Origin: Klebsiella phage vB_KoxiM_BaqKoxi
Length of the DNA stretch: 64,000 nt
Sequence record: PQ741797.1
Reading direction: 5' to 3' (one strand)
Position numbers and translations under genes: made by a program. Below are positions 8,221 through 9,638 of the stretch, piece by piece. Within the stretch, counting starts at the first letter, position 1. Each line of letters begins with the position of its first letter. The notes beneath the pieces were generated by a model. That model was given only the letters and a program-made list of their open reading frames with translations, had not been told where the DNA came from and did no database searches.

Positions 8221-8620
8221 ACATCCTATCAATGAGTGCTCTGTAGGTTTACGTAATGGACTTTATTGCCATAGGGTACGAAGCAAAGTGCAGAGCACTC
8301 TTTGATAGTTTTCGTAAGCGATTATGCGGTTTTTTAAAAACGAACCAATAACATAAATGCAAACGATGATGTTGTTCTGATGGCTGCTTAATTGCATAAC
8401 CATTAGTCAGGGGTGAGTCGCCCTGATTATCAAACGACCATGGAGTGTCCCCGTCCGTGTATTAGAAACGGGGAGCCATTAAAAAGAGTACTGAATGTCA
8501 CGTTAGTGAATGGACAAGGTATCCTTGCAGTACTCTTTTCGATGGTGAACCATCAAGTCCAGACTATATCTGAGTGACTTTAAAAACAGATGGAGCCAGG
8601 TGGAATCCCTGGCAATCAAT

Positions 8621-8687
8621 TCCGGTGTAGGTACTAGCGTTGTGCACAAACGTGAGTGTTCTGGTTCGAGTCCAGACGCCGGAACCA
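8621..8687 (+). ncRNA. tRNA-like 3' module (acceptor + T-arm + CCA) lacking a normal D-arm; tRNA remnant or part of a larger structured RNA
   Basis: tccggtg ... tctgg-ttcgagt-ccaga-cgccgga-a-cca; only 32 nt separate the acceptor 5' strand from the T-stem. Confidence 0.3.
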
Positions 8688-9574
8688 ATCAGAAGTAGCA
8701 CTGGCTCATATCAGTGAAACACGAACCCGTTGAGCAAACGAGATTAGCTAACTCTCAGTGCTACCCCTAATTGGAAGAGCATACGATACCAATGCTCGGT
8801 AAGTAGGTATCCAGGGTGACCAACTAATACGCCTGATGATTCTCTGTAATGGGATGAAACACATAGTGTAGCGTAGCCCCTCAAAGGTCACTTTAGTCGA
8901 GGGGGTGAACCGAGCAACTAACTATGGGGATAAGTCGTAAATACGACGGCGTAAGTACCAGATGAGACCTCTGGACGCCCCTACCAGATTTGAGGTGTAA
9001 CAGTTAAATCCAGTTACCGGAAGTGCAATTCTAGATACGCTTCCAATGCGTAAACGGTAAGGCTGTACAGGACTCGTACTCCCATCTCAAACCTTATTAT
9101 GAACCAGTAAAGAAACAAGTCTGTTATTTCCAATTAACTTATTAATAGTTGAGAGAGAAATCGCCCTGGGGAGGGTTGTCGATAACGCTATATCGTAAGA
9201 CTTGCTGGTAAGAATCCAGCATGGTTCACCTATTTAATGCGTCGTTAGTTCTAACAATGAGAGAACACAAGTCCGGTAGCTCCGGGTAAAACTTGAGGTT
9301 AGGTGTGCAACCCACCTACGACGTACCAAATCAATGCAGCAACATAGCCCTGATTGCATAGCACTCTAAAGACAATACTGGTGAGGCAGTCCAGTAGCTG
9401 CTATCCTACTACCATACCCCCGACAAGGTGTATGTACGGAGAAGGGAACTCCTTAAATCCCAAACCCCTCTCTTTGTAATAGGACTATCAATCCAGACCG
9501 TGCTGACGGGTCATAAAATATCAGCAGTTACATTGAGAGACTACAAGCCTCCCAGCTATGGGTAAATAGTACTA

Positions 9575-9609
9575 AGCCCTCCTATGTTGCGATAGGAGGG
9601 CTTTTTTAT
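9575..9609 (+). terminator. rho-independent terminator closing the tRNA/structured-RNA region
   Basis: agccctcctat-gttgc-gataggagggct followed by ttttttatt. Confidence 0.65.
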
Positions 9610-9638
9610 TCGAAAGTGATAACCCACAGAGGAATACC

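Follow-up and report, generated by a model that had tools for sequence, protein, structure and literature searches.

A probable mosaic of exchangeable RNA cassettes, including a tmRNA-like tag RNA and a predicted hammerhead, beside the tRNA genes of Klebsiella phage vB_KoxiM_BaqKoxi

The small stable RNAs species 1 and 2 of phage T4 (rnaC/rnaD) are co-transcribed with the phage tRNA cluster, and the GOLLD and ROOL RNAs often adjoin tRNA genes. Intergenic hammerhead ribozymes are likewise known from phages, where they are thought to cut polycistronic transcripts (PMC3088659), and a 2025 database of transfer-messenger RNA (tmRNA) has categories for tmRNAs without a coding sequence and requires a CCA-bearing tRNA-like end. 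The locus described here occupies positions 8221-9638 of a 64,000-nt stretch of the Klebsiella phage vB_KoxiM_BaqKoxi genome (PQ741797.1); this whole stretch is called the window, and coordinates refer to it unless a locus is named. The region is probably the distal, protein-free part of a tRNA operon, a single transcription unit made up of horizontally exchanged structured-RNA cassettes, all of which lie on the plus strand. One of these cassettes, termed the tag RNA (8305-8612), is very probably a tmRNA-derived homologue without the tRNA-like domain, and another (~8775-8916) carries a predicted type I hammerhead ribozyme.

The mosaic character of the region is evident from its relatives. When it was compared by BLAST with 50,697 phage records, 272 matched and none covered 80% of it, the closest phages reaching 52-77%. 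Each sub-block has its matches in a different set of unrelated phages, and nearly all of these matches fall in unannotated gaps that adjoin tRNA genes: ~8298-8478 matches Pylas, Serratia 3M, Salmonella 7-11, P1, D6, T1-like siphoviruses and HK633; 8556-8630 matches kuraviruses; 8775-8916 matches Klebsiella 05F01 and Pseudomonas 5371; 8980-9091 matches KaOmega and a Pantoea phage; and 9336-9614 matches Moo19. A BLAST map over all fetched loci delimits blocks at 8771-8920, 8920-9093, 9091-9240, 9336-9404 and 9542-9610, with relatives of 9091-9240 and 9240-9335 found among close ones only. Blocks recur among relatives in differing orders and combinations, and cassette presence varies even between close relatives, KP8 and Kpn16-P2 having a tRNA-like insert of ~128 nt after 8478 that is absent from the window. 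All supported helices are local to one block, and identities of 70-97% between blocks of unrelated virus families point to recent spread and retention. Covarying helices were found in several blocks, answering the proposal of an earlier, model-generated first-pass annotation that compensatory changes be sought in related genomes; together with an intact hammerhead core and a tag reading frame of fixed length, they show that the blocks are under purifying selection with compensatory changes.

The limits of the region agree with those drawn by the first-pass annotation, which had seen an ORF-poor, structured stretch between a tRNA-Gly gene and a terminator. Rfam tRNAs lie upstream at 7723, 7802, 7885, 7978 and 8146-8217, the last corresponding to tRNA-Gly(UCC) at 8146-8220 (Rfam 61 bits, missed by ARAGORN), whose encoded CCA ends at 8220. 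At the other end, a conserved 3' block (9545-9609) comprises the CCCAGCUAUGGG hairpin and an intrinsic terminator at 9574-9609, in which a GC-rich hairpin with a 12-bp stem (9574-9603) is followed by the T-run TTTTTAT. No sigma-70-like promoter was found in 7200-9700, against 4.1 expected, which fits a single transcription unit reading through from the tRNAs to the terminator and agrees with the earlier suggestion of a structured non-coding RNA beside tRNA genes, probably co-transcribed with them. Open reading frames (ORFs) of at least 60 amino acids (aa) in 8221-9638 are antisense only (8503-8688, 61 aa; 7997-8224, 75 aa, over the tRNAs), and both inverted repeats that had been pointed out are present: a 10-bp one (GAGTGCTCTG at 8234-8243, CAGAGCACTC at 8291-8300) and a 12-bp one (AAAAGAGTACTG at 8482-8493, CAGTACTCTTTT at 8528-8539) around CAAGG-TAT-CCTTG. 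BaqKoxi itself is an N4-like Klebsiella phage (Schitoviridae, Enquatrovirinae, KP8-like) with its virion RNA polymerase gene (3,487 aa) on the minus strand at 10999-21462, and the best database relatives of the window are Klebsiella phages vB_Kpn16-P2 and KP8. Once transcribed, the precursor would be cut by tRNA-processing enzymes at its tRNA-like elements and further split by hammerhead self-cleavage at 8870|8871.

Alignment of the window with P1, Serratia 3M and Pylas exposes the feature that gives the tag RNA its name, an invariant UGCAAACGAU followed by a short frame at 8359-8391 (GCA AAC GAT GAT GTT GTT CTG ATG GCT GCT TAA) that reads ANDDVVLMAA*, the counterpart of the E. coli tmRNA tag ANDENYALAA*. 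The frame begins with a GCA resume codon and, as in tmRNA, has neither a start codon nor a Shine-Dalgarno sequence. Among 253 copies gathered from two pattern scans of IMG/VR plus GenBank loci, every one has exactly 10 codons and a stop, and all bar one exception follow the pattern A-N-[D/E]-x-x-x-x-x-[A/V]-A; the copies encode 21 peptide variants, and their final Ala codons vary synonymously among GCU, GCG, GCA and GCC. Taken together, these features indicate that the 10-codon frame is under coding-type selection. Also conserved is the upstream signal AUAAAU (8353-8358, positions -6 to -1), of which A-U-A at -6 to -4 is retained and UAAAU is kept before GCA in nearly all aligned members; the AUA corresponds to A84-U85-A86 of E. 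coli tmRNA. Those three positions set the reading frame on E. coli tmRNA. Frame setting upstream of the E. coli resume codon is the topic of one publication (PMC2481249).

Covariance models point in the same direction. The Rfam model tmRNA_permuted (RF04321) matches the 8305-8612 block with 34-36 bits (E=2.5e-5 in a 503-nt search), below its gathering threshold (GA) of 47, beta_tmRNA aligns over the tag and the following hairpin, and within the window the tmRNA models are the sole Rfam families touching this block. A sub-threshold tmRNA_permuted match of 23-30 bits recurs in 7 of 9 independent phage loci, and beta_tmRNA, alpha_tmRNA and tmRNA matches likewise fall over the tag in independent loci. 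In the RF04321 alignment, 77 inner positions of the tRNA domain are deleted, and ARAGORN, run for standard and permuted tmRNA, found none in the window or in ~320 homologous loci; the tag RNA has no acceptor stem, T-arm or CCA, which explains both the ARAGORN result and Rfam scores below GA. No universal tRNA-like partner stands beside the tag RNA, its neighbours varying between tRNA-Met, Asn, Thr, Ser and none, and the tRNA-like elements near it have C3-G70, none having the G3:U70 alanine identity pair. In T1-like phages, a near-consensus promoter (TTGACA-17-TAGATT) ends ~7 nt before UAGUUUUCGU, with a terminator ~600 nt downstream, so that the RNA is predicted to start at its antisense arm, where tmRNA has pseudoknot 1 (PK1), and to have no 5' acceptor strand.

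Behind the tag, the RNA retains a succession of covarying elements, the first of them a PK2-like pseudoknot at 8407-8439 with stem 1 UCAGGG 8407-8412 / CCCUGA 8421-8426 and a loop pairing GUCG 8417-8420 / CGAC 8435-8438. RNAalifold, run on 74 representatives, recovers stem 1, whose pairs show changes on both sides in 36, 35 and 9 sequences; across the copies there are 10 stem-1 types and 6 stem-2 types, including CCGA/UCGG, GUCG/CGAC, CCAG/CUGG and CCAA/UUGG. Column-wise covariation could be assessed on the MAFFT alignment for PK2 stem 1 alone, the other helices being out of register, and these were therefore counted by anchored parsing with a shuffle control; by that measure, 149 of 151 unique copies contain PK2, as do 34% of shuffles. 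It is followed by hairpin H3 (8447-8475, UCCCCGU/ACGGGGA, conserved loop CGUGUAUUAGAA), which shows 19 different stems around a conserved GUGU(G)AUUA loop, by the L2 hairpin (8482-8539) with its 12-bp stem and variable apical insert, and by a PK3-like element with the hairpin CCAGG-UGGAAUC-CCUGG (8555-8612), kept in SEzh_1, XT32 and N4-like phages, which has a covarying stem GCAUG/CAUGC and a UGGAAGCC motif resembling host tmRNA nt 202-215. A PK1-like pairing upstream of the tag is also possible, with a register that shifts between subtypes and with the same bases that are complementary to host tmRNA.

Two candidates in this part of the region were tried and rejected. H3 (8447-8475 plus GCCA) is not an acceptor minihelix or 3' end, as the CCA is not conserved; after H3, the T1-like, HK633 and P1 copies read ACA(C/U)AACAGG, running on into the L2 helix. 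A second "tag" at 8734 (GCAAACGAGATTAGCTAA) falls in a stem of the L3 insert, and PhAPEC7 has GCAGAC there. Several further observations concern the same elements. The hairpin with the 7-nt loop UGGAAKC (8596-8612 in the window; also in P1, Pseudomonas 5371 and others) recurs across several cassettes and phages, sometimes twice per RNA, and its loop is T-loop-like, with GG at loop positions 2-3, and resembles GUGGAAGCC in E. coli tmRNA PK3. In the N4/P1 subtype, the pseudoknot after the tag (8413-8439) reads ...GAGUCGC[10 nt]AAACGACC and resembles the host resume region UAGUCGCAAACGAC with an insertion; it may represent the start of the tmRNA message in a second, degenerate copy. The ~128-nt insert of KP8 (locus ~1910-2040) and Kpn16-P2 (locus ~1905-2035) sits between H3 and L2, has an acceptor UACUGGU/ACCAGUA, a T-arm GGAGG-UUCGAAU-CCUUC, ACCA and a long internal domain, and is found at other array positions in Gamaleyaviruses.

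At its 5' end, the tag RNA carries an arm (8305-8336) with three seeds antisense to host tmRNA nt 67-107, that is, to the PK1 3' strand, the resume codon and tag codons 1-6. Seed UAGUUUUCGU (8306-8315) pairs with ACGAAAACUA at tmRNA 97-106, seed GCGAUUAU (8318-8325) with AUAGUCGC at 84-91, including G90-C91 of the resume codon G90-C91-A92, and seed GCGGUUUUUUA (8326-8336) with UAAAAAGCCGC at 68-78; two C-to-U differences in the BaqKoxi arm yield G·U pairs. In a minus-strand blastn comparison with E. coli tmRNA, the T1-like arm matches 68-81 (14/14) and 97-106 (10/10) perfectly and also has GCGAC opposite G87-C91, the three matches being collinear. Among 66 parsed variants, the seeds hardly change and the linkers between them are hypervariable (2-12 nt); most seed changes preserve wobble pairing (GCGAU, GCGGC, GUGGC), and in three subtypes an extra UCGUCGU lengthens the complementarity into tmRNA 94-100. 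The target itself is conserved in the tmRNAs of Raoultella, Enterobacter, Serratia, Pectobacterium, Providencia and Vibrio.

The strength of this complementarity was examined with RNAduplex, using 56-66-nt 5' segments of seven divergent members against full-length E. coli tmRNA and 300 shuffles each; earlier runs with 400-500-nt partners had given meaningless full-length duplexes and were redone with these segments and with the 32-38-nt arm. In all seven members, the best site is tmRNA 54-107. The BaqKoxi segment reaches -39.6 kcal/mol against a shuffle mean of -23.2, and none of the 300 shuffles is equally good for BaqKoxi, the T1-like copy or HK633. For the arm by itself, the energy at tmRNA 67-107 is -33 to -37 kcal/mol across members (BaqKoxi -32.9), against -15.9 kcal/mol for the best site of the BaqKoxi arm in cis; in general, the best partner of the arm inside its own RNA pairs less strongly, and its position differs from phage to phage.

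How such pairing might work can be sketched from the geometry of the predicted duplex. The 5' arm would anneal to the single-stranded tag region of host tmRNA, masking the host resume codon and the first tag codons, displacing the PK1 3' strand and setting the phage's own resume codon beside SmpB and the tRNA-like domain of the host. The phage strand would leave the duplex at the PK1 position and have its own resume codon 22 nt on, compared with a PK1-to-resume distance of 11 nt in the host, an arrangement in which a hybrid two-piece tmRNA could add the phage tag; the tag on rescued proteins would then change from ANDENYALAA to ANDDVVLMAA. The least to be expected would be a block on host tagging.

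A tag RNA made for pairing with host tmRNA, as we infer from this complementarity, is the most consequential and the least proven point of the analysis, and several observations weigh against it. For P1, 3M, cp18 and 7-11, between 3 and 13 of the 300 shuffles reach the observed duplex energy, and the arm of an Aeromonas phage, compared with the Aeromonas tmRNA target, shows one compensating change and one mismatch, with no clear co-variation. Alternatively, an inverted duplication of a tmRNA segment could have left the complementarity behind as a relic, or the complementarity could have a role in folding the RNA in cis, for which PK1-like alternatives exist (GUUUU/ARAAAC, YUWUG/CAWAR). Even where pairing is granted, its outcome may be of two kinds. 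It is a tentative possibility that many enterobacterial phages (P1, Vi01-like, T1-like, FelixO1-like and N4-like) encode a "half tmRNA" that forms a hybrid two-piece tmRNA with the host molecule, in which the alanyl-tRNA-like domain and SmpB would come from the host and the message from the phage, and so rewrites the degradation tag put on proteins from stalled ribosomes during infection. A somewhat unlikely alternative is that the tag-like frame is not decoded and that the tag RNA acts on host tmRNA solely by antisense inhibition or as a sponge; the strong complementarity of the arm to an accessible part of host tmRNA, the position of a seed at the 5' end of T1-like transcripts and the lack of a tRNA-like domain that would bring the tag RNA to ribosomes all accord with inhibition. 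Pure inhibition, however, leaves the conserved frame unexplained: in an unread frame, one would not expect a length of exactly 10 codons, the GCA start, the Ala/Val-Ala at the C-terminus and variation at third positions to persist through 253 copies and 21 variants, or AUA at -6 to -4 to be retained.

The tag RNA is widely distributed. Its 203-nt T1-type core, searched against the same 50,697 phage records, matches 631 of them, among which Salmonella (214), Escherichia (190) and Klebsiella (106) phages are prominent and Vi01-like, FelixO1-like, N4-like, SJ46 (P1-like), Vibrio and Erwinia phages are also represented; the matched positions are almost always unannotated. Of 5,426 complete E. coli genomes, 157 contain HK633-type copies, and every E. 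coli match listed falls where nothing is annotated. In P1, the tag RNA (AF234172, 68791-69065) follows directly on the terminator of the annotated "dicF-like region" in the ban operon leader; with the C1-controlled ban promoters upstream of it and tRNA-Asn and tRNA-Thr downstream, it would be expressed on derepression. As an observation on these neighbourhoods, the Rfam small-RNA family STnc100 occurs in the cp18 locus (2497-2710; 52 bits, above its GA of 47) and below threshold in the P1 locus (3682-3801), both within tRNA/non-coding RNA islands that hold the tag RNA. A literature search found the tag peptides in no paper and nothing on antisense or phage control of tmRNA, and for N4-like non-coding RNAs and phage tmRNA-like RNAs it returned only phage tmRNAs that are full or consist of the tRNA-like domain (TLD) only, together with phage hammerheads. 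The CCA-end requirement of the 2025 tmRNA database would exclude the tag-RNA class.

The second recognisable cassette, at ~8775-8916, was aligned across 11 homologues (the window, Klebsiella 05F01, Pseudomonas 5371 and eight IMG/VR contigs). Its best Rfam match, Hammerhead_3 with 17.9 bits against a GA of 48.5, led to the core CUGAUGA at 8833-8839, which is followed by stem II (8840-8855), GAA (8856-8858) and stem III (8859-8869; ACAC-AUA-GUGU, with A15.1-U16.1 as A8859...U8869), N17 being A8870 and the predicted cleavage site 8870|8871. Stem I is formed by 8816-8821/8886-8891 and stem Ia by UACGC 8828-8832 / GCGUA 8871-8875, and the module is completed by an outer helix (8793-8799/8910-8916) and a 5' pseudoknot (GAUACC 8785-8790 / GGUAUC 8806-8811). 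The core is invariant in 11 of 11 homologues, with N17 being A, U or C and never G, and covariation extends through the surrounding helices: six helix types in stem II (UCUC/GGGA, GCUGG/CCAGC, GCCA/UGGC, GACUU/AAGUC, GCUA/UAGC, GCC/GGC), four in stem III, compensatory UACGC/GCGUA versus UAUGC/GCAUA in stem Ia, UGCUCGG/CCGAGCA, GCCUUUC/GAAAGGC and GCUCUCC/GGAGAGC in the outer helix, and GAUACC/GGUAUC versus GACACC/GGUGUC in the 5' pseudoknot, with the extended stem I and a hairpin in the stem I 3' strand covarying too. The type III topology implied by the Rfam alignment was rejected, as its 21-nt "stem I" cannot pair and the covariation supports type I. In both sequence and structure, the module conforms to all the rules for a type I hammerhead, its cleavage being a prediction, and by these comparisons it is a new sequence variant of the phage intergenic kind, with an unusual 5' pseudoknot.

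Two further modules appear, from their helix exchanges, to be conserved covarying RNAs outside the recognised classes, and neither has an Rfam family match. Module D (8989-9091) is a structured RNA of ~103 nt closed by UUUGAGGUG/CAUCUCAAA; it is present in phage N4, ECBP1, PBM-3 and KaOmega, in the last between tRNA-Glu and tRNA-Asp, and in N4 its closing helix changes compensatorily to GUGGGAUG/CAUCCCAC around an almost invariant interior. Module E1 (9336-9401) is a 66-nt three-helix RNA, GCAGC...GCUGC, with 11 homologues including N4 and Moo19; its 5-bp closing helix P1 is fully exchanged in ECBP1 (GCAGC/GCUGC to UAGAG/CUCUA), and its hairpin ACUGG/CCAGU covaries to AUUGG/CCAAU and GCCGG/CCGGC. 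Phage N4 appears to carry D (687-798) and E1 (898-964, both in locus coordinates) and not the tag RNA or the hammerhead, making it a ready experimental system for the two modules.

Among the tRNA-like RNAs, the module without a D-arm to which the first-pass annotation had drawn attention is present at 8621-8687, with a 7-bp acceptor (UCCGGUG/CGCCGGA), a T-arm (UCUGG-UUCGAGU-CCAGA), A73 and an encoded CCA (ACCA in the sequence), a 5-bp anticodon-like hairpin with a 7-nt GUGCACA loop, and no D stem. It lacks a tRNA cloverleaf, gave no Rfam tRNA match at E<=10 and no ARAGORN call; its homologues in PBM-3 and KP8 are annotated as tRNA-Cys or tRNA-OTHER, and its anticodon-like stem is changed compensatorily in PBM-3. 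Most likely, it would be released by RNase P and 3' processing. A comparable element lies just outside the region at 8068-8143 (T-arm ACAGG-UUCGACU-CCUGU, 7-bp acceptor UCCCCGU/ACGGGGA, G73, CCA, anticodon-like loop CAGGCAU), which gave no ARAGORN call and no Rfam tRNA match at E<=10. Its acceptor stem together with GCCA recurs identically as hairpin H3 of the tag RNA (8448-8478), and Salmonella phage 7-11 has a similar tRNA-like element with the loop UAGGCAU.

The cassettes are flanked by three similar helices, L1, L2 and L3, with the consensus RGYRCUG...CAGYRCY. L1 (8234-8300) has a 10-bp stem, GAGUGCUCUG/CAGAGCACUC, and a 47-nt insert, belongs to the segment whose fold scores z = -6.5 against shuffles, and has a motif that also precedes the tag RNA in Pollock, HK633 and Carvaje; L3 (8695-8764), GUAGCACUG/CAGUGCUAC, has a 52-nt insert and is kept in PhAPEC7. 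In a T1-like contig, the L3 insert is found again inside L2, its stem covarying (GCUCA/UGAGC versus GCGCA/UGCGC), and a helix homologous to L2, ACAACAGGUAAGAGCA.../...GUGCUCUUUCCGUUGU, encloses unrelated inserts in the T1-like, HK633 and P1 copies and a T-arm in Carvaje. These helices may be processing sites or insertion platforms.

Against this inventory, the observation made in the first-pass annotation is confirmed, and its interpretation, which had left a choice between one long structured RNA, a decayed tRNA array and short ORFs below the 60-aa cut-off, is partly supported. A single large, ornate RNA of the GOLLD/ROOL type, spanning all 1.4 kb and folding and acting as a unit, would suit the single terminator, the lack of internal sigma-70-like promoters, the adjoining tRNA genes and the strong folding signal in two of the three thirds, where comparison with 100 dinucleotide shuffles gives z = -6.5 for 8221-8690 and z = -3.7 for 9161-9612, with 0 of 100 shuffles equally good in either. 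It is hardly credible, however, given the patchwork just described, in which every block of 65-300 nt has its own set of relatives, no phage shares more than part of the region and no helix crosses a block; moreover, at Rfam gathering thresholds tRNAs alone pass in the whole window, and searches at E<=10 over 7000-10500, 8218-8720 and 8760-8960 returned no GOLLD, ROOL or group I intron and no other ribozyme beyond the sub-threshold Hammerhead_3. A graveyard of decayed tRNA or tmRNA genes without present function could account for the tRNA-like pieces at 8621-8687 and 8068-8143 that tRNA finders do not call, for the tRNA-OTHER, tRNA-Cys and tRNA-Xle annotations at homologous places in relatives, and for a tmRNA-like block without a tRNA-like domain. 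Decay would not be expected to leave purifying selection with compensatory changes across blocks, a fixed-length tag frame intact in 253 of 253 copies, a hammerhead core intact in 11 of 11 with N17 never G, or 70-97% identity across unrelated virus families, and as an account of the region it is very unlikely, the tRNA-like piece being the part of the earlier suggestion that stands.

The chance that the region encodes small proteins is close to negligible: several ORFs of 41-61 aa do exist on both strands, but none has a significant PHROG match (best E=0.018, for one antisense ORF), most are broken by stops, indels or frameshifts, or cassette boundaries in relatives 90-97% identical, the remainder are intact solely among near-identical relatives, and conservation follows RNA helices, not codons, the 10-codon tag excepted. 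The reading of the region as a set of exchanged RNA cassettes has points against it as well: its transcription is a prediction, the tmRNA and hammerhead Rfam scores all lie under their gathering thresholds, and the expectation of a structured region, borne out in the outer thirds, fails in the middle one (8691-9160), which folds no better than shuffles (z = -0.8), a weak score attributed to pseudoknotted elements there that are invisible to minimum-free-energy folding.

Should the cassette reading and the proposed interaction hold, their implications would reach beyond a single phage. The "empty" gaps beside phage tRNA genes would be exchange sites for functional RNA cassettes, left blank by annotation pipelines. 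With copies in more than 600 sequenced phages, the model phage P1 among them, and in the prophages of ~3% of complete E. coli genomes, the tag RNA would represent a widespread unannotated phage RNA class directed at the principal bacterial pathway for ribosome rescue and protein quality control. Such RNA-level reprogramming or blocking of trans-translation would be a host take-over of a new kind, and the tag RNA would offer a natural "message-only" partner for studying resume-codon selection in tmRNA.

Set beside the known systems, the locus shares features with each and departs from each. Like the T4 tRNA operon, it appears to combine tRNAs with non-tRNA structured RNAs, some of which have tRNA-like 3' ends and CCA and are presumably released by tRNA enzymes; in this comparison, drawn from general background, the cassettes fall into recognisable classes (tmRNA-like, hammerhead), whereas T4 species 1 and 2 do not. 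With GOLLD and ROOL it has in common a phage association, proximity to tRNA genes and freedom from ORFs, and it differs in having no Rfam match to them and a modular, not unitary, architecture. The predicted ribozyme shares with phage and prophage hammerheads (PMC3088659) the core CUGAUGA...GAAA...U-H, three helices and a place in phage intergenic RNA, and is distinguished by its type I topology, a long interrupted stem I, a conserved 5' pseudoknot and its setting within tRNA/non-coding RNA arrays. The closest kinship is with two-piece (permuted) tmRNA/SsrA (RF04321, RF01849, RF01850), with which the tag RNA shares the AUAAAU-GCA resume context, a 10-codon tag that starts A-N-D/E and ends in Ala-Ala or Val-Ala and a stop, a pseudoknot downstream of this tag and a PK3-like hairpin of the UGGAAGCC type; in sequence, it comes closest to the tag region of the permuted and beta tmRNA models. 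Unlike tmRNA, it has no acceptor stem with G3:U70, T-arm or CCA of its own, carries an antisense arm to host tmRNA in place of PK1 and P2, and is phage-encoded beside tRNA genes. Phage-borne tmRNA derivatives are represented by the full tmRNAs of Bxz1-like phages and Bacillus phage G and by the "TLD-only" tmRNA of mycobacteriophage DS6A, of which the tag RNA would be the mirror image, having lost the tRNA-like half and kept the mRNA-like one.

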